IMG/VR virus record: IMGVR_UViG_2698536590_000008
Span: 1-12,502 of that record
Length of the DNA stretch: 12,502 bases
Origin: a virus
Lineage: Duplodnaviria > Heunggongvirae > Uroviricota > Caudoviricetes
Direction: 5' to 3' (one strand)
Position numbers and translations under genes: made by a program. This document shows positions 5,593 through 12,502 of the stretch, one piece after another. The notes under the pieces were generated by a model. The model had not been told where the DNA came from. It searched no databases and saw only the letters and a list, made by a program, of their open reading frames with translations. Numbering within the stretch: the stretch's first letter is position 1; each line of letters opens with the position of its first letter.

Positions 5593-7022
5593 TACTCAAT
5601 CCTTATCTGAGCACCAGACAGAGTGACAGGTGACTTCGTGATAACGCGCAATTTGAAGCCGACATTTTTCCTGATGCGCCCTACTCGCTTCCACAAAACG
5701 CGTTTGTCGTAAACGAACGGTTCATTCTGCTCAATCATCTGCTCACGCCCGTAATTTATGCCGTCAGTGGTTGCAGAGAGAAAAAGGCGGTCAGCATACT
5801 GCGCAACTCCAGTTGACGATTCAACTTCAAGGTCGAAAACTCTGGCGTTATCCGCTTTGAACAGAGGAGTAAACAGCAGATGTTCCTGTTGCTTGTCGTA
5901 CTGGCTGCTGATGTCGAATTGCAATTTCCCGGTCACCGATTCCAGTTTGTCGCCGCACGTTATCTGATTTCCTTCGTAAATGAAGTCGATAGCGCGGTAC
6001 ACATCGTCATACAGGCCTGTTTTCAACACACACCATTGCGGACCATTGGCGCTTGAAGATGCGTCGTACACGAGAACATGGCGCGGAAGGTGGATAATCA
6101 GCAACTCATGAGCATCAAATCGCAGCGATTCCATCACACCATCAGCCAGTTCATCAGCAGTGTAGGAGCGGAGGATTTTCTCAATGCTCGCGCTGGCGAT
6201 TGGTGACACCTGACCGGAGCCGATGATGTATACAGACGGCGCACCTGTTGCCGGATTGCTGATGAACGCATACGAGTCAGCAAACGGCGTTTTGCAGTAA
6301 GTCCCGGCAATGCCTTTCTGCACCATCAGCGATGGCTGTGCGACATACAGAGCAGCCCCAACAGTGGTTGCACCAGTCAGGGAGAAATATTCAATCGTCG
6401 ACGAACCAAAGCAGACTATGAAGTCTCGCCATGTACCTATGCCGATGATGCCGTCAGGCTGCGACTCTGCACGATATTGTGCGCTGTATCGGTCAGGATG
6501 CGATTCGTCTTCAAGGTCAGTGATAAACCATGAATCAGTTCCGTCTTTTGACCACGCATAACGCCCACGTAAGCGCGTAATGTCGCGAACCGAACCTAAC
6601 TCATACTGCGTAAATCCGCTGTCTGTAGGCCAGTTTGAGACGGTTTTAACCGTGCCATCATAGCGATACTCAACCAGTTGACCATTAACGCCTACAGCCT
6701 GAGATGTTCGACCATGCGCCATTGATACGCGACCACTTCCGGCGACGTCACCGACTTCGCTTTCGCCTTTGTAGAGCTTGCCGCCACACACACGATAGAC
6801 AGCATTCTGCGCCATGTTGTACTCGACGCCGCGCGATACACCGTTCACATCAGAGCGTTTGGCAATGCCCGGGAATGAGCGAAGATATCCGCTGCTGTTC
6901 AGGATTTCTTTGGGGGTTGCCAACATATTCACTGGCAGATAGTCGATATAGTCGGCGTTTCGAAAGTCTTTGCCGACACCTTTCATAAGCGGAAGTTGCT
7001 GAAGAGGAAGAGTGTAGAGCAA
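5592..7022 (-). CDS. Tail hub / head-completion protein, P22 gp10-like (476 aa)
   Basis: ORF track 476 aa; [40 protein letters not shown] and length match P22 gene 10 product as recalled. Start is TTG at 7022, the first start codon after the in-frame TAA at 7071-7073; the first ATG is at 6986-6984. Stop overlaps the needle gene start. Confidence 0.8.
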
Positions 7023-7042
7023 AGGATAAAGCTCACCGGAAA

Positions 7043-7162
7043 GAAGTAAATAACAAAATACTTGCTGACCTTATCAAGGTTGGCGCATCAGAAGATGTTG
7101 CTAAAAATATCATAACAGCCATCGTAAAAGGCGAAGTATTCGCAACAAAAATAACCTACTAA
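7043..7162 (+). pseudogene. Start-less C-terminal coding fragment (...NKILADLIKVGASEDVAKNIITAIVKGEVFATKITY*) upstream of cIII
   Basis: Plus-strand frame is open from 6989 to TAA at 7160-7162 with no ATG/GTG/TTG in frame; its 5' part overlaps the gp10 start region. Consistent with the 3' remnant of a gene truncated at a deletion or rearrangement junction. Left boundary approximate. Confidence 0.35.
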
Positions 7163-7186
7163 TAAAACCAACATAAGGAACCACCC

Positions 7187-7318
7187 ATGATTTACGCAAT
7201 CGCGGGAGGCGCTCGCATGGGTGCCTTCCAATTAAATGAATCTTTACTTGAACGAATCACCCGTAAATTACGTGACGGATGGAAAAGAGTTGAGGTCTTA
7301 TTATGCGCAATGAAATAG
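7187..7318 (+). CDS. cIII: CIII-like protein (43 aa)
   Basis: ATG at 7187 with AAGGA SD 7 nt upstream; translation MIYAIAGGARMGAFQLNESLLERITRKLRDGWKRVEVLLCAMK contains the ESLLERITRKLRDGWKR core I recall from lambda CIII; below the ORF-track size cutoff. Confidence 0.7.
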   Translation: MIYAIAGGARMGAFQLNESLLERITRKLRDGWKRVEVLLCAMK

Positions 7319-7455
7319 CCATCAATCACCAGATGCTTCGTGCTGCACAGAACAAAGCAGTAATAGCCCGATTTATTGGTGATTCAAAAATGTGGCTTGA
7401 AGCAAATAAAGCGATGAAATCAGCTATCAACCTTCCGTGGTATCGCAGGAAATGA
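7303..7455 (+). CDS. kil: Kil-like host division inhibitor (50 aa)
   Basis: ATG at 7303 with GAGG SD 6 nt upstream, overlapping the cIII 3' end; MRNEIAINHQMLRAAQNKAVIARFIGDSKMWLEANKAMKSAINLPWYRRK resembles the IATFIGDEKMF segment I recall from lambda Kil; position cIII-kil-recombinase matches the lambdoid PL operon. Confidence 0.55.
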   Translation: MRNEIAINHQMLRAAQNKAVIARFIGDSKMWLEANKAMKSAINLPWYRRK

Positions 7456-7530
7456 GTTTTACAGATAACTGGTCAGACGAAGAATTCATTCGTCAGATGA
7501 AAGAATTAATCGGTAACGAAGGAGATATTC

Positions 7531-7701
7531 ATGTCACTTGCAACCACAGTGAAGGAGAGCAAGTTACAGAGACGCATGTACACGCAGCAGGCGTTAATGT
7601 ATCGCCAGAAGGGAGATCGTGAAGGTGTTCGCGTATTTTTAAATGCGGCAAAGACTGAAGTATTAAATCAGCGTTATTTCCTTGGGCCATGTCCATTCTG
7701 A
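7531..7701 (+). CDS. Small early protein at the arf position between kil and erf (56 aa)
   Basis: ATG at 7531 preceded by a strong GAAGGAG SD at 6 nt spacing; ends 10 nt before the erf ATG. Competes with an overlapping alternative frame at 7452-7622 (see rejected list). Confidence 0.35.
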   Translation: MSLATTVKESKLQRRMYTQQALMYRQKGDREGVRVFLNAAKTEVLNQRYFLGPCPF

Positions 7702-7711
7702 GAACAAACAT

Positions 7712-8317
7712 ATGAGCAAAGAATTTTACGCAAGACTGGCAGCTATTCAGGAGAACTTGAACGCGCCAAAGAATCAGTACAACTCATTCGGCAAATATAA
7801 ATACAGAAGCTGCGAAGACATTCTTGAAGGCGTTAAGCCGTTACTGAATGGTCTGTTTTTATCAATCAGCGATGAAGTTGTGTTGATTGGTGATCGGTAT
7901 TACGTGAAAGCCACGGCAACTATTACCGATGGCGAAAACAGTCATACGGCAACCGCTCTTGCACGAGAGGAAGAAAGCAAGAAAGGAATGGATTCTGCAC
8001 AAGTTACGGGAGCTACAAGCTCTTATGCACGCAAGTATTGCCTCAATGGTTTGTTCGGCATTGATGATGCGAAAGATGCAGATACAGACGAGCATAAACA
8101 TCAGCAGAACGCAGCAGCAAAGCAATCAAAACCATCACCTACACCTGAACAGGTTCTAAAAGCATTCACTGACGCAGCAATGCAGAAAAACACCGTGGAA
8201 GAGCTTAAACAGGCGTTCGCCAAAGCGTGGAAGATGCTCGAAGGCACACCGGAGCAGCACAAAGCGCAGGACGTTTACAACATCAGACGAGACGAATTAG
8301 AAGGAGCGGCTGCTTAA
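7712..8317 (+). CDS. erf: Erf single-strand annealing recombinase (201 aa)
   Basis: ORF-track protein from internal ATG 7712: MSKEFYARLAAIQENLNAPKNQYNSFGKYKYRSCEDILEGVKPLL...ATITDGENSH...SSYARKYCLNGLFGIDDAKD matches P22 Erf as I recall it. The track's upstream extension (TTG 7682) is unlikely to be the start. Confidence 0.8.
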   Translation: MSKEFYARLAAIQENLNAPKNQYNSFGKYKYRSCEDILEGVKPLLNGLFLSISDEVVLIGDRYYVKATATITDGENSHTATALAREEESKKGMDSAQVTGATSSYARKYCLNGLFGIDDAKDADTDEHKHQQNAAAKQSKPSPTPEQVLKAFTDAAMQKNTVEELKQAFAKAWKMLEGTPEQHKAQDVYNIRRDELEGAAA

Positions 8318-8700
8318 TGGCACATTCGATTACTGTAAGACTAAACAAGCCCGCAAGAGAGTTTCAGGCCGGGGAAAATATCGGATTCAACATCCGTGCT
8401 GGCGTTCAGTATTACGATCGCCAGACAAAAAAGAAAGAATGGACAAACTACAGCGCCGTTGTATTTGCCAAGCCGGGAGCGCAAGCGGATTACTACCGTA
8501 GTGTTCTTGTTGAAGGTGGCATTGTGGAAATTACCGGAGAAAACATCAGGGTTGATGTTTATCAGGGGCAAAATGGTCAATCAATCACTCTTGAATTACT
8601 GAATGCAAAGATTGGATTTGCAACTTCAGGAAACAGCCAACAGCAGCAAAGTAGCAATCATCAAAATCATCCTGAATACGACGATTCAATCCCCTTCTAA
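8317..8700 (+). CDS. Single-stranded DNA-binding protein-like (127 aa)
   Basis: ATG at 8317 overlaps the erf stop (TAATG) with AAGGAG SD 10 nt upstream; OB-fold-like core (WTNYSAVVFAKPGAQADYYRSVLVEGGIVEITGENIRVDVYQGQNGQSITLEL), a Gln-rich linker and the acidic tip DDSIPF typical of bacterial SSB C-termini (compare DDDIPF). Confidence 0.65.
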   Translation: MAHSITVRLNKPAREFQAGENIGFNIRAGVQYYDRQTKKKEWTNYSAVVFAKPGAQADYYRSVLVEGGIVEITGENIRVDVYQGQNGQSITLELLNAKIGFATSGNSQQQQSSNHQNHPEYDDSIPF

Positions 8701-8723
8701 AGTAGCAACATAAGGATTCCATT

Positions 8724-9020
8724 ATGCCAGCGCCTCTGTATGGTGCGGATGACCCGCGCCGCTGTTCCGGCAATTCCGTATCGGAGGTGCTGGATAAATT
8801 CAGGAAAAACTACGATCGGATAATGTCGCTACCGCAGGAAACGAAAGAGGAAAAGGAATTTCGCCACTGTATATGGCTTGCAGAGAAAGAAGAACGAGAG
8901 CGAATTTACCAGACATCAATCCGACCATTCCGCAAAGCAACATATACCCACTTCCCTGAATATATCGACCCGCGCCTGCGTAATTACCGCTCACGCTATG
9001 GCGCTATCAGTAATGACTGA
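8724..9020 (+). CDS. Hypothetical early protein (98 aa); position and size comparable to P22 Abc2 anti-RecBCD, unconfirmed
   Basis: ORF track 98 aa; ATG at 8724 with AAGGA SD at 6 nt; directly downstream of the erf-ssb pair, where P22 carries its abc genes. I cannot recall Abc sequences well enough to confirm. Confidence 0.5.
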   Translation: MPAPLYGADDPRRCSGNSVSEVLDKFRKNYDRIMSLPQETKEEKEFRHCIWLAEKEERERIYQTSIRPFRKATYTHFPEYIDPRLRNYRSRYGAISND

Positions 9021-9030
9021 GGAATTAACA

Positions 9031-9321
9031 ATGAAAACAATGAAGCTAAACATCGACCTCGGAAAATACGTTATTACCGGAACAAAACACGATCTGATTC
9101 TTAGCGAAAGAGGAATTATCAAAGAAGGCGAGAATGCAGGGAAAGAAACACTAAGCCGTATCGGTTATTACAGCAAGTTTGAGCATCTGGTTAAAGAGTT
9201 ATGCAACCGTGAAATCCTGTTATCTCAGGCGCAGACGCTACAGGATATTCAGCAACATATCGAGACTTTAGGTGTGTCACTTAGCATGGCTATTGACCAG
9301 TTCGTGGAGAGTAAATCATGA
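9031..9321 (+). CDS. Hypothetical protein (96 aa)
   Basis: ATG at 9031 with GAGG SD 8 nt upstream; in frame with track ORF 8878-9321, whose 5' extension overlaps the preceding gene and is unlikely; product [22 protein letters not shown]... Confidence 0.5.
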
Positions 9322-9485
9322 GAGGGCTTGCATACAATCCCGGCATTCTTCCGGCAGAAATGATTATTCGCCAACGCGTAAAGCCAATGCCATCGAGAGA
9401 GGAATTGCTTAAGAGAAATTCTTTTCCATCAGTGAATCAAAACAAATATCTGAATGCGATGTGGCGCAAAGGAGGCAGCCAGTGA
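9318..9485 (+). CDS. Hypothetical small protein (55 aa)
   Basis: ATG at 9318 overlaps the previous stop (ATGA); product [55 protein letters not shown]; fills an otherwise unexplained 160-bp gap; below the ORF-track cutoff. Confidence 0.4.
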
Positions 9486-10126
9486 ATAACCGCTTTTACA
9501 TGATGTGCTTGCGTGAAACTGTGGGTAATAACGCTTCATTCCATTGCCATAACGGCAATGGTTACAGTTCTAATATCGATCGCGCTCATGTTTACACGCT
9601 GGAAGAAGCCCAAAAAGCCTGGAATTGTGGTCGAGATATCGATCAGCCTGTTTGCGCTGATAGCGTGGATGCAATGGCTGTGTGGCACGTTGATTGCCAG
9701 TACATCCCTACAGAAAACCTGATTGAGCCAGATTGCACTGCGTATGTGGCCTACAAAAAAGGTAGCTGGAACGGCAACGATGTTTACTGGCTTCAACACG
9801 GTGGATTGCCAACAGATGACTTCAGTAAAGCGACCATCTTTAGCGTCGCCAACAAAAACGAACCAGGAATAGTTTGGTTGCCATTTTCCATTGCTGATTC
9901 AGCAAAGCGCCGGACGTTCAATATCAATAACTTTAACCGCAGAACAATGGTTCAGGGCGCAGGTTTGGTCATGCCTGACTGGTTGAAAAAGCAGAACAGA
10001 AGAAAGAAGTCGCGAAGCGGGAAGGTGCGTTGGAATTGTCCGCATTGCGGAAAAATCACCTGGCAGCACAACCCATATGATTTTGAAGGCTGTAGTGATT
10101 ACAACTGTGAAGGATGGCGAGAATGA
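9482..10126 (+). CDS. Cys/His-rich protein with C-terminal zinc-ribbon motif (about 214 aa), unknown function
   Basis: Track ORF 9461-10126; preferred start GTG 9482 (AAGGAGG SD at 7 nt, overlapping the previous stop), or ATG 9500. C-terminus [44 protein letters not shown] has a basic patch plus CxxC...C....C; N-terminal half has several Cys/His. Confidence 0.55.
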
Positions 10127-10670
10127 CAATTGACTATCAGGCACTGCGTGAAAAAGCAGAAAAGCAACGTGTGGTGTATGGTCGCTCGAATATGGAGAGG
10201 AGAGATTTGATGGTGATGATGCACTAATTCATCGCGAGGCTGCTGGATATATTCCCATTTGCAGAATTGAAGGAGCGCATCCAGAAAGCGGTTTCGATGA
10301 AGATTTCCAAATGGAACAGCAGGCCAATGCTGAATTCATCGCCGCAGCCAATCCAGCTACCGTGCTGGCACTACTAGATGAAAGGGAAAGAAACCAGCAA
10401 TACATCAAACGCCGTGACCAGGAGAACGAGGATATTGCGCTAACGGTAGGGAAGTTGCGCGTTGAGCTTGAGGCAGAAAAACAGCGGGCAAAGGATCTGT
10501 TTATGGAAAATGCTCGGCTTAAGTCAGGTATAGCCGGTCTGATACACCTCGGTATTCGATATGCAGATGTTGAGGTCATGAAAATTGCTGGAGATGCCCA
10601 GCTTTCTACCCCATGCACTGACAGCATCATAAACAGCATTGCAACAGGCATTCGCATCAAAGGAGAGTGA
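10123..10670 (+). pseudogene. Ead/Ea22-like protein gene, apparently disrupted by a 1-nt frameshift
   Basis: ATG at 10123 (overlapping upstream stop) opens a 34-codon ORF ending at 10227; a second frame is open from 10152 to 10670 (track ORF 10311-10670). One added A in the A4 run at 10160-10163 joins them into a roughly 183-aa protein [20 protein letters not shown]...EFIAAANPATVLALLDERERNQ..., which resembles prophage Ead/Ea22-like proteins from memory. Confidence 0.45.
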
Positions 10671-10671
10671 T

Positions 10672-10935
10672 ATGGCAACTTTGACAAAAAAGGAACAGGC
10701 ATGGTTGAGCGAATTACAGAACGTTCTTGATCGCTGCCCGTCACCGAAAAAAATTGGTTTTTACACCATTGGCGATAAAAGCATTTACCTGTATGACCTA
10801 CGCCGCATGGATGAAATCATGGAGGCTCTTGATAATCGTTCGTCAATGGATTGGTGTGTTGCTGTCCATGATATGAATGCCGGATTTGAAGAAAAGATTT
10901 TGTTCCCCTCGTCAGTTGAAAGCACTGCGGGTTAA
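10672..10935 (+). CDS. Hypothetical protein (87 aa)
   Basis: ATG at 10672 with AGGAG SD at 6 nt; in frame with track ORF 10639-10935; product MATLTKKEQAWLSELQNVLDRCPSPKKIGFYTIGDKSIYLYDL... Confidence 0.5.
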   Translation: MATLTKKEQAWLSELQNVLDRCPSPKKIGFYTIGDKSIYLYDLRRMDEIMEALDNRSSMDWCVAVHDMNAGFEEKILFPSSVESTAG

Positions 10936-10945
10936 GGAGTAACAC

Positions 10946-11590
10946 ATGACCACTATTACCAAAGAACGTATTGAATTGTTCATTAAAAATCCGCTTGAAA
11001 ACGGACTTACCCGTGGCGAACAAATGGAACTGGCACGGATTGCACTGGCATCACTGAAACGCGAACAGATTCGCCACGAGCATGCCAAATGGTCTGACTC
11101 CACATTTGGCTGCGTTGGCCCCATTGGTCCACTGAAACACCTCTCAAAAGAGGCACTGGAAGCCGCAGCCGAACCAGACGATCTTAGCGAGTGGGCTGAT
11201 ATGCAGTTTCTGTTGTGGGATGCACAGCGCCGTGCTGGCATCAGCGATGCTGAAATTACCGCTGCTATGGAAGATAAATTGAAGATTAACATGGAGCGCC
11301 AGTGGCCTGAACCAAAAGATGGTGAGCCTCGCTTGCACATTAAAGAACCCGGCAACTCTCCGGTAACTCCGGATGGTTGGATAAGCTGTAGTGAGCGAAT
11401 GCCTGAAATTAGACAAACAGTTATTGGATGGAATGGATATGCAGTTAGACAATGCGTATATACAAGGAATGGATACGCCAAGACACAGAAAGGCAGAGAG
11501 CCAAGGTTTGAAACCTCAACTGGTATATGGCATGGAGTAACCCACTGGATGCCGCTACCAGAACCGCCGCAGGAGGTTAACCGCGGCTAA
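10946..11590 (+). CDS. DUF550/DUF551-type prophage protein (N-terminal dATP/dGTP pyrophosphohydrolase-like domain, C-terminal DUF551), 214 aa
   Basis: ORF track 214 aa; ATG with AGGAG SD at 6 nt; N-terminal region (HEHAKWSDSTFG...) resembles the MazG-like dNTP pyrophosphohydrolase domain common in enterobacterial prophages; C-terminus (PDGWISCSERMPE...GIWHGVTHWMPLPEPP) fits the DUF551 pattern. From recall. Confidence 0.6.
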   Translation: MTTITKERIELFIKNPLENGLTRGEQMELARIALASLKREQIRHEHAKWSDSTFGCVGPIGPLKHLSKEALEAAAEPDDLSEWADMQFLLWDAQRRAGISDAEITAAMEDKLKINMERQWPEPKDGEPRLHIKEPGNSPVTPDGWISCSERMPEIRQTVIGWNGYAVRQCVYTRNGYAKTQKGREPRFETSTGIWHGVTHWMPLPEPPQEVNRG

Positions 11591-11690
11591 CCTGCAACTT
11601 GCCGTCAAAGGTGAATAACAATCCTCGCACTCGCGGGGATTTCTTTTATCTGAACTCGCTACGGCGGGTTTTGTTTTATGGAGATGATAA

Positions 11691-11825
11691 ATGCACTTCC
11701 GAGTCACAGGTGAATGGAATGGAGAACCATTCAACAGGGTTATCGAAGCAGAGGACATCAACGACTGCTATAACCACTGGATGATATGGGCGCAGATAGC
11801 GCATGCAGACGTAACAAATATTTGA
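11691..11825 (+). CDS. Hypothetical small protein (44 aa)
   Basis: ATG at 11691 with GGAG SD at 7 nt; MHFRVTGEWNGEPFNRVIEAEDINDCYNHWMIWAQIAHADVTNI; followed 22 nt later by a strong hairpin terminator. Preferred over the TTG-initiated overlapping track ORF 11599-11784, which has no SD. Confidence 0.4.
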   Translation: MHFRVTGEWNGEPFNRVIEAEDINDCYNHWMIWAQIAHADVTNI

Positions 11826-11847
11826 TTTGAAGAACTGAAAGAACACC

Positions 11848-11872
11848 AAGCCGCCTGATGGCGGTTTTTTAT
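11848..11872 (+). terminator. Rho-independent terminator-like hairpin with U-tract
   Basis: AAGCCGCC (11848-11855), loop TGAT, GGCGGTTT (11860-11867) gives an 8-bp stem including one G-U pair, followed by a T6 run (11865-11870). Confidence 0.55.
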
Positions 11873-11884
11873 TGGAGACAAGAA

Positions 11885-12229
11885 ATGTCAGATTTGGCTA
11901 TGAAGGTTTTGAAATGGCAATCAACTGGCGATGTTGGCATCAGTAGCGCAACTCTTGCCTCAATCGCATGTGTACTGAAAAAGAATATCTATGGTCATCA
12001 CTTCGGCGCTCCCCATGACGCAGCCGATTTCAGACGATGCGTTGCACTTGTTGAGCAGATTCCAGAAATCAGAGATTCATTCAACAAGGTTGCAAAGCGC
12101 GTTCCGGCATTCAAAGGCATCCTCAACGAATGGGATTCTCTCGTTGCTCTGTTGAAGTCTGAAATGAAGATACACGGAAACAAAGCACCAGAGACTTACA
12201 AAAGAATCAGCGAGCTACGCAAGGACTAA
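11885..12229 (+). CDS. Hypothetical protein (114 aa), orphan gene bracketed by two hairpin terminators
   Basis: In frame with track ORF 11858-12229, but ATG 11858 lies inside the terminator loop; preferred start ATG 11885 with GGAGA SD at 6 nt. Product MSDLAMKVLKWQSTGDVGISSATLASIACVLKKNIYGHHFGAPHDAADFRRCVALVEQ...; no family recognised. Confidence 0.5.
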   Translation: MSDLAMKVLKWQSTGDVGISSATLASIACVLKKNIYGHHFGAPHDAADFRRCVALVEQIPEIRDSFNKVAKRVPAFKGILNEWDSLVALLKSEMKIHGNKAPETYKRISELRKD

Positions 12230-12269
12230 CCACAGTCTCACACTCGATGAGGCCTGTTCATATCTGATA

Positions 12270-12296
12270 GAGCCGCTATATGGCGGTTTATTTTTG
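12270..12296 (+). terminator. Terminator-like hairpin with U-rich tail, related in sequence to the 11848 hairpin
   Basis: AGCCGC (12271-12276), loop TATATG, GCGGTT (12283-12288) gives a 6-bp stem including a G-U pair, followed by TATTTTT; lies 40 nt after the stop of the 114-aa gene and 15 nt before the xis SD. Confidence 0.4.
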
Positions 12297-12310
12297 CCTG
12301 GAGAATTAAG

Positions 12311-12502
12311 ATGACCGATACCAGCCTGATTCCTGAGAAAGAAGTGATGAACAAGCTCGGTGTTTCATCACGTCAGACAATCTGGAACTATACCAAACGG
12401 CACGGATTTCCGAAGCCAGTCAGAACCCACCCCAAATCATACCTTCGTGAAGCTGTTGAAGGGTGGATTCTTAACGGTGGCGTTAATCAGAAATGCTCCT
12501 GA
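12311..12502 (+). CDS. xis: Excisionase / AlpA-family DNA-binding protein (63 aa)
   Basis: ORF track 63 aa; ATG with GGAGA SD at 6 nt; EKEVMNKLGVSSRQTIWNYTKRHGFPKPVRTHPKSYLREAVEGWI matches the AlpA/Xis HTH pattern (S..TIW.....G.FPKP.......W...E...WI); position at the distal end of the early-left arm, where xis precedes int. Confidence 0.6.
   Translation: MTDTSLIPEKEVMNKLGVSSRQTIWNYTKRHGFPKPVRTHPKSYLREAVEGWILNGGVNQKCS

Follow-up and report, generated by a model that had tools for sequence, protein, structure and literature searches.

The window analysed here, a 12,502-nucleotide stretch of viral DNA, is a P22/Sf6-like (Lederbergvirus-type) prophage. Its minus strand carries the genes for gp16 (which runs off the left end), gp20, gp7, gp14, the tail needle gp26, and gp10. 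The plus strand begins with cIII, kil, erf, an unnamed 127-aa open reading frame (ORF), the gene for anti-RecBCD protein 2, and genes for small DUF proteins; these are followed by a gene for an Ead/Ea22-like protein, the gene under study, three small ORFs, and the gene for an AlpA-type excisionase. Homologues of the gene under study in phage records (P22-like, Stx, and Klebsiella phages) are labelled EaA, Eaa, or DUF550 protein, and it is called the EaA gene below. It lies between erf/anti-RecBCD and the excisionase gene, on the same strand, and this plus-strand gene order puts it within the early-left operon, in the classical "ea" region. The features of the gene and its surroundings are listed in Table 1.

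Table 1. Features of the EaA gene and its flanks (window coordinates)
Feature	Position	Strand	Details and basis
EaA-family coding sequence (leader, PF04447 core, linker, DUF551)	10946..11590	+	214 aa, ATG start, stop codon included
Shine-Dalgarno sequence AAGGAG	10935..10940	+	read from the sequence; 5 nt before the EaA ATG
Variable N-terminal leader, residues 1-34	10946..11047	+	PHROGs, start of homology in relatives, AF2 helices
PF04447 core, residues 42-137; predicted all-alpha MazG/HisE-fold NTP pyrophosphohydrolase	11069..11356	+	142.8 bits; AF2; Foldseek
First putative metal-binding motif, E69-A-L-E72 (S-2L MazZ E35/E38)	11150..11161	+	alignment
Second putative metal-binding motif, E82-W-A-D85 (S-2L MazZ E50/D53)	11189..11200	+	alignment
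Linker and first DUF551 motif, NSPVTPDGWISCSERMPE; conserved mosaic joint between modules	11351..11410	+	boundaries of phage matches
DUF551 (PF04448), residues 144-209; predicted small all-beta domain	11375..11572	+	Pfam, AF2 domain model, Foldseek
Two tandem intrinsic-terminator-like hairpins with T-tails	11620..11681	+	stems 11620-11641 and 11652-11671; consensus matches only

The first-pass annotation had proposed, from the letters alone, a two-domain nucleotide pyrophosphohydrolase-like protein at this site, and the feature proved real: the ORF was exact, and a Pfam hmmscan recovered both expected domains at full length. PF04447 (dATP-dGTP_PPHyd, formerly DUF550) matched residues 42–137 over model positions 1–96 of 97 with 142.8 bits (E = 4.1e-42), and PF04448 (DUF551) matched residues 144–209 over the whole model (1–68 of 68) with 62.4 bits (E = 7.5e-17). 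The Pfam gathering thresholds for these families are 23 and 22 bits, respectively, and both matches are far beyond chance. One detail of the earlier reading had to be corrected: the pyrophosphatase domain is present, but it does not lie at the very N-terminus, because a variable leader of approximately 34 residues precedes it. Searching Pfam at E-values up to 1 gave only PF04447 and PF04448, with no match to canonical MazG (PF03819) or PRA-PH. An NCBIfam scan of the protein found no family, and the 16 PHROGs families that matched it are all of "unknown function"; Rfam, searched over the whole window at the gathering threshold, likewise gave no family. The Shine-Dalgarno sequence overlaps the stop codon of the gene upstream, an arrangement of translational coupling. 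An antisense ORF (10912–11481, 189 aa) had no PHROG homologue and was treated as a shadow ORF.

The EaA gene has an ordinary, already-known architecture in a known genomic position. NCBI already holds a 100% identical 214-aa protein, annotated as "DUF550 domain-containing protein [Escherichia coli]". The closest known systems are the EaA proteins of P22-like, lambdoid, and Stx phages, which have the same two domains in the same order at the same site between the recombination genes and xis/int. Among these, the "Eaa prophage protein" of Escherichia phage phiv142-3 is 79% identical to the query over 99% of its length, and EaA of Salmonella phage 22 is 55% identical. Nothing essential distinguishes them from the query; the leader and the middle of DUF551 vary by module exchange.

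To describe the pyrophosphatase core we relied on MazZ of cyanophage S-2L, a (d)GTP-specific MazG-like enzyme of known structure. In that enzyme three Mn2+ ions are bound via E34/E35/E38 and E50/D53, D60 contacts the guanine 2-amino group, R83 stabilises the beta-phosphate, and the partner chain supplies K76, N80, W85, R94, and H95; E34 is the sole ligand described as not strictly conserved (PMC8342488). When the EaA protein was aligned with S-2L MazZ, E34/E35/E38 corresponded to K68/E69/E72, E50/D53 to E82/D85, D60 to D92, and R83 to R118, while the residues of the partner chain corresponded to K111, N115, W120, R129, and H131. Conservation was determined in 150 representatives of 50%-identity clusters, which include many architectures. 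E69 and E72 were kept in 148 and 149 of these, respectively, and E82 and D85 in 149 each; taken together, the metal, phosphate, and base-contact positions were each conserved in 143–149 of the 150. A three-way alignment placed the same catalytic motifs in the biochemically characterised MazZ of Acinetobacter phage SH-Ab 15497. The catalytic acidic residues, whose loss the first-pass annotation had named as evidence against its own assignment, are thus retained and conserved.

The predicted fold agrees with these alignments. AF2 modelled residues 1–125 as five helices with a pLDDT of approximately 90. A Foldseek search of the PDB with this model returned chains of 7ODY (S-2L MazZ) as the top four matches, with a probability of 1.00, an rmsd of approximately 3 Å, 27–29% identity, and target-normalised TM scores of 0.64–0.72, followed by YpjD (2GTA), Bacillus MazG (5IE9), and HisIE (6J2L). 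The E-values of the 7ODY matches were weak (0.16–0.26), as is expected because the core is a short helical bundle. A search of PDB sequences also gave 7ODY as its sole match (E = 0.43). The suggestion that the protein resembles MazG therefore holds at the level of a MazG/HisE-like four-helix-bundle fold, with MazZ as the nearest solved structure. S-2L MazZ shares with the EaA protein its metal ligands, most pocket residues, and the aspartate that reads guanine N2; it differs in its marginal sequence similarity and in being a single domain of approximately 100 residues encoded in a purZ/datZ cluster, whereas the EaA protein has an additional leader and DUF551 and no Z-pathway partners. The conserved residues and the model make it very probable that the core is an all-alpha NTP pyrophosphohydrolase competent for catalysis, and the EaA protein is most likely an active enzyme converting NTP to NMP and PPi. 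D92, which is invariant, hints mildly that guanine nucleotides are recognised.

The second domain is of a different kind. DUF551 has conserved ends (W145 and P153 at one, T199-H-W-M-P-L-P205 at the other) and, between these, a middle part of hypervariable sequence and length; W145, P153, W201, and P205 were invariant in 96 sequences. In the first AF2 run, made with a 2019-column alignment, the DUF551 region had a pLDDT below 50 and no structure. A dedicated alignment of the 96 DUF551 sequences gave a confident all-beta model with a mean pLDDT of 81.9, containing five strands of at least three residues and a short N-terminal strand. Foldseek found no significant match to this model in the PDB (E of 0.24 or higher); the neighbours were all Tudor, chromo, or SH3-like small barrels (UHRF1, PHF20, 53BP1, TDRD3, MRG15, and eIF5A), with query-normalised TM scores of approximately 0.4–0.46. 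In BFVD the same model matched other DUF551 proteins alone, all of them uncharacterised and encoded by a wide variety of phages. The model of DUF551 is thus a small beta-barrel similar to Tudor/SH3 domains. The domain is also found by itself, in proteins of approximately 68 aa, and behind many unrelated N-terminal modules, including those of YfdS of the cryptic prophage CPS-53 and of the V2 variant of Ea22 in Stx phages (PMC10834534, PMC4776307). These last two resemble the EaA protein in carrying a C-terminal DUF551 on a prophage early-region protein, and differ from it in having other N-terminal partners and no pyrophosphatase core. DUF551 is most likely a portable binding or targeting module and not a catalytic one.

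Comparison with relatives showed that the EaA protein is mosaic. Some PHROG families matched residues 1–49 only, and the leader, which forms two helices in the AF2 model (residues 6–14 and 23–54), is swapped independently of the core. Homology of relatives to the query started at residues 21–40 in 121 of 145 and ended at residues 134–156 in 114 of 145. In the DNA comparison, the HK106, HK022, and TL-2011a matches start at window position 11351, and those in phiv142-3, ev017, and VSe13 end at 11378–11410. Because the phage DNA matches and the homology of relatives both break at the linker NSPVTPDGWISCSERMPE, we regard it as a recombination joint. The conserved flanks of DUF551 coincide with the DNA-level mosaic breakpoints, and on this ground DUF551 behaves as a cassette exchanged at conserved linkers.

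The family is large, with 4,817 clusters at 50% identity (E of 0.001 or better) and members in 875 phage records, including Stx-converting and Klebsiella phages. Among the best 150 representatives, a sample in which DUF551 carriers are over-represented, as the query itself includes this domain, PF04447 was present in 149 and DUF551 in 49; others carried Ead_Ea22, Lar, Exc, or unannotated modules. Coverage of the 1.3-kb neighbourhood of the EaA gene reached 80% in none of the phage records. This, with the position of the gene in the mosaic ea region, makes its earlier description as accessory cargo a fair one.

The prophage itself is an internally deleted remnant. In the junction region (6990–7190), the minus-strand gp10 starts (approximately 7003–7022) directly beside the 3' end of the gene that precedes cIII; everything that would lie between them, namely the antiterminator, immunity, replication, lysis, and head genes, is missing, as is PL. 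The E. coli draft contig LOOJ01000049.1 matches the window at 100% identity, and the remnant was also found, adjoining sbcB, in three other E. coli assemblies with 99.98–99.99% identity. It is therefore present in at least four E. coli draft assemblies overall (99.98–100% identity), and its junction was found in none of the 5,426 complete RefSeq E. coli genomes. An analogous, independent deletion was observed in strain MSB1_9I, at ybhB/ybhC.

The EaA gene may be silent in this remnant, because the immunity region, PL, and the antiterminator have been deleted and a plus-strand promoter scan upstream of the gene gave only one weak promoter-like site (7458–7485). The tandem terminator-like hairpins lie directly 3' of the EaA stop codon, and in a scan of 6900–12502 there were 12 terminator-like sites where shuffled sequences gave an expectation of 5.5 ± 2.3. 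Without an antiterminator gene, such hairpins would block read-through. The last 900 bp of the ea operon hold four plus-strand hairpins of this type with T-tails: the two at 11620–11671, one at 11848–11867, and one at 12270–12289.

Several other observations were made in the remnant. Although the repressor and the PL region are gone, cIII and kil are intact at 7187–7455; the kil product is an inhibitor of host cell division, and both genes are presumably silent. The ORF at 9461–10126 (214–221 aa) belongs to phrog_2457 (E = 3e-118), a family of unassigned function, and has no Pfam or PADLOC match. It is conserved in all copies of the remnant, and its Cys-rich C-terminus (CPHCG...C...C) suggests a zinc ribbon. 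The Ead/Ea22-like gene (region of 10311–10670 and 10639–10935) is short and aligns with the Pfam model over its C-terminal part alone (54–139 of 139). Its gene calls differ among near-identical remnant copies (119 versus 147 aa), which suggests start-codon or frame variation. Just right of the window end, at 11366–12716 of the locus in one remnant copy, is an integrase gene (Arm-DNA-bind_3 and Phage_integrase). Encoded on the opposite strand, it runs convergently towards the last ORF of the window, that of the 63-aa AlpA-like excisionase, whose 3' end it overlaps; in P22, in contrast, int and xis are co-directional.

How far the Pfam name can be applied to the EaA protein depends on the enzyme from which it was taken. 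The present name of PF04447 was taken from the DUF550-containing MazZ of SH-Ab 15497 (PMC12884076), an enzyme of the 2-aminoadenine pathway that makes dGMP from dGTP and dAMP from dATP (PMC12884076, PMC8342488). This 385-aa protein, encoded at 32865–34022 of its genome directly after PurZ, belongs to the same Pfam family as the EaA protein and has the same catalytic motifs. It differs in its partner domain, an N-terminal PF18909 (DUF5664) where the EaA protein has a C-terminal DUF551. It scored only 33.4 bits on PF04447, whereas EaA-type proteins score approximately 140 bits, and it aligned with the query at 40% identity over 42 residues only. From the difference in scores (33.4 versus 142.8 bits for the query) and the short alignment, we conclude that EaA-type sequences dominate the PF04447 model and that the characterised enzyme is an outlier. 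Because the name-giving MazZ is so distant, the "dATP/dGTP" label is not to be taken literally for the EaA protein. It is reasonable to carry over the chemistry (NTP to NMP and PPi), but not the substrate or the biological role. The product name "dATP/dGTP pyrophosphohydrolase" is thus spreading automatically from an outlier.

We propose that the EaA gene is an accessory gene of the early-left region of a P22/Sf6-like temperate phage, and that its product consists of three exchangeable modules: the leader, the PF04447 core, and the DUF551 barrel. The core most likely oligomerises, binds two or three Mg2+ or Mn2+ ions via E69/E72/E82/D85, and would split the alpha–beta phosphate bond of a nucleoside triphosphate to give NMP and PPi. 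The most probable class of substrate is purine, especially guanine, (deoxy)nucleotides; a guanine-type substrate is favoured because D92 stands in the place of MazZ D60, the Asp that recognises the 2-amino group of guanine. The true substrate may still differ from that of the characterised MazZ, because destroying dGTP or dATP would seem to work against a phage whose DNA is canonical. The DUF551 barrel would most likely bind or target a partner. During infection by an intact phage or its induction, transcription from PL would switch the gene on early, and its product would adjust or sanitise the nucleotide pool; as cargo, the gene would be dispensable. Considering sequence and models together, we think it probable that the protein works by metal-dependent NTP pyrophosphohydrolysis in an oligomeric MazG-like core joined to a swappable beta-barrel. 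A search of the literature on EaA/P22 and MazZ found no functional study of EaA-type proteins, and an "eaa homologue" in Gifsy-1 is mentioned there in passing only.

Among the other explanations, the one that survives best keeps the catalytic core and changes its target: the core would hydrolyse an alarmone or a defence nucleotide, such as (p)ppGpp, the chain-terminating ddhNTPs made by viperin, or another signal, and DUF551 would target the enzyme to a host partner. The gene is early, non-essential, and mosaic, and adjoins an anti-RecBCD gene, all of which would suit such a role, as would the hypervariable middle of DUF551 if that module were under diversifying pressure. A precedent exists in Atd1, a phage MazG-like enzyme of Pectobacterium phage PcCB7V that is reported to deplete (p)ppGpp and to protect against TIR-STING toxicity (bioRxiv 10.1101/2022.06.09.495361). 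[quoted passage not shown] Its gene is probably the one for an 86-aa "phosphoribosyl-ATP pyrophosphatase" of PcCB7V, as we infer from that annotation and from its position two genes from a nucleotidyltransferase gene. This putative Atd1 had a weak PRA-PH match (19.6 bits), no PF04447 match, and no BLASTP similarity to the EaA protein, and it was rejected as a member of the PF04447 family. If this is the correct gene, Atd1 appears to belong to a different family, and the precedent applies at the superfamily level only. Furthermore, the EaA protein matched none of the families in PADLOC-DB, our literature search found nothing linking DUF550 or EaA to defence, and a cyanophage MazG is reported to be unable to hydrolyse magic-spot nucleotides (PMC6850273). 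We consider this explanation unlikely. The first-pass annotation had suggested depletion of nucleotide pools or modulation of defence or stress signalling, and for the EaA protein these ideas are speculation. The broader form, in which EaA-type DUF550-DUF551 proteins would be very widespread phage counter-defence enzymes whose hypervariable DUF551 cassette sets their target or localisation, seems to us slightly less likely again.

A second alternative dispenses with catalysis. The MazG-like bundle would serve only as an oligomerisation scaffold, as the lambda Ea22 coiled coil does, and the phenotype would arise from binding by DUF551. The neighbouring genes are Ead/Ea22-like, and DUF551 is common to the Ea22 V2 variant and YfdS, the loss of which is reported to sensitise cells to H2O2 (PMC10834534, PMC4776307). 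However, near-invariance of the four metal ligands and of the phosphate and base contacts in 150 relatives is hard to explain without catalysis, and two thirds of the listed relatives lack DUF551 altogether; we therefore regard a purely structural core as improbable. The last alternative, that the EaA protein is a MazZ of the 2-aminoadenine (Z-genome) pathway that feeds dGMP to PurZ and removes dATP, draws on the Pfam family name and on the catalytic motifs common to both MazZ enzymes, and is effectively refuted by context, since neither the ORFs of the window nor the extended locus include PurZ, DatZ, or DpoZ, the gene is hosted by P22-like phages of E. coli and Salmonella, the DUF550 proteins of Z-phages are reported to form a single clade of their own (PMC12884076), and the SH-Ab 15497 MazZ has low pairwise similarity and a different partner domain.

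We thus return to the accessory pyrophosphohydrolase with an exchangeable barrel. For the locus itself the finding matters little, as this is a very common phage gene family in a degraded prophage. Its main value is as a caution that the current name of PF04447 rests on a distant member: a family of approximately 4,800 clusters is being named automatically as "dATP/dGTP pyrophosphohydrolase" from one distant Z-genome enzyme. The Klebsiella phages that carry a family member are of the kind isolated as candidate therapeutics, and the function of EaA bears on thousands of genes.
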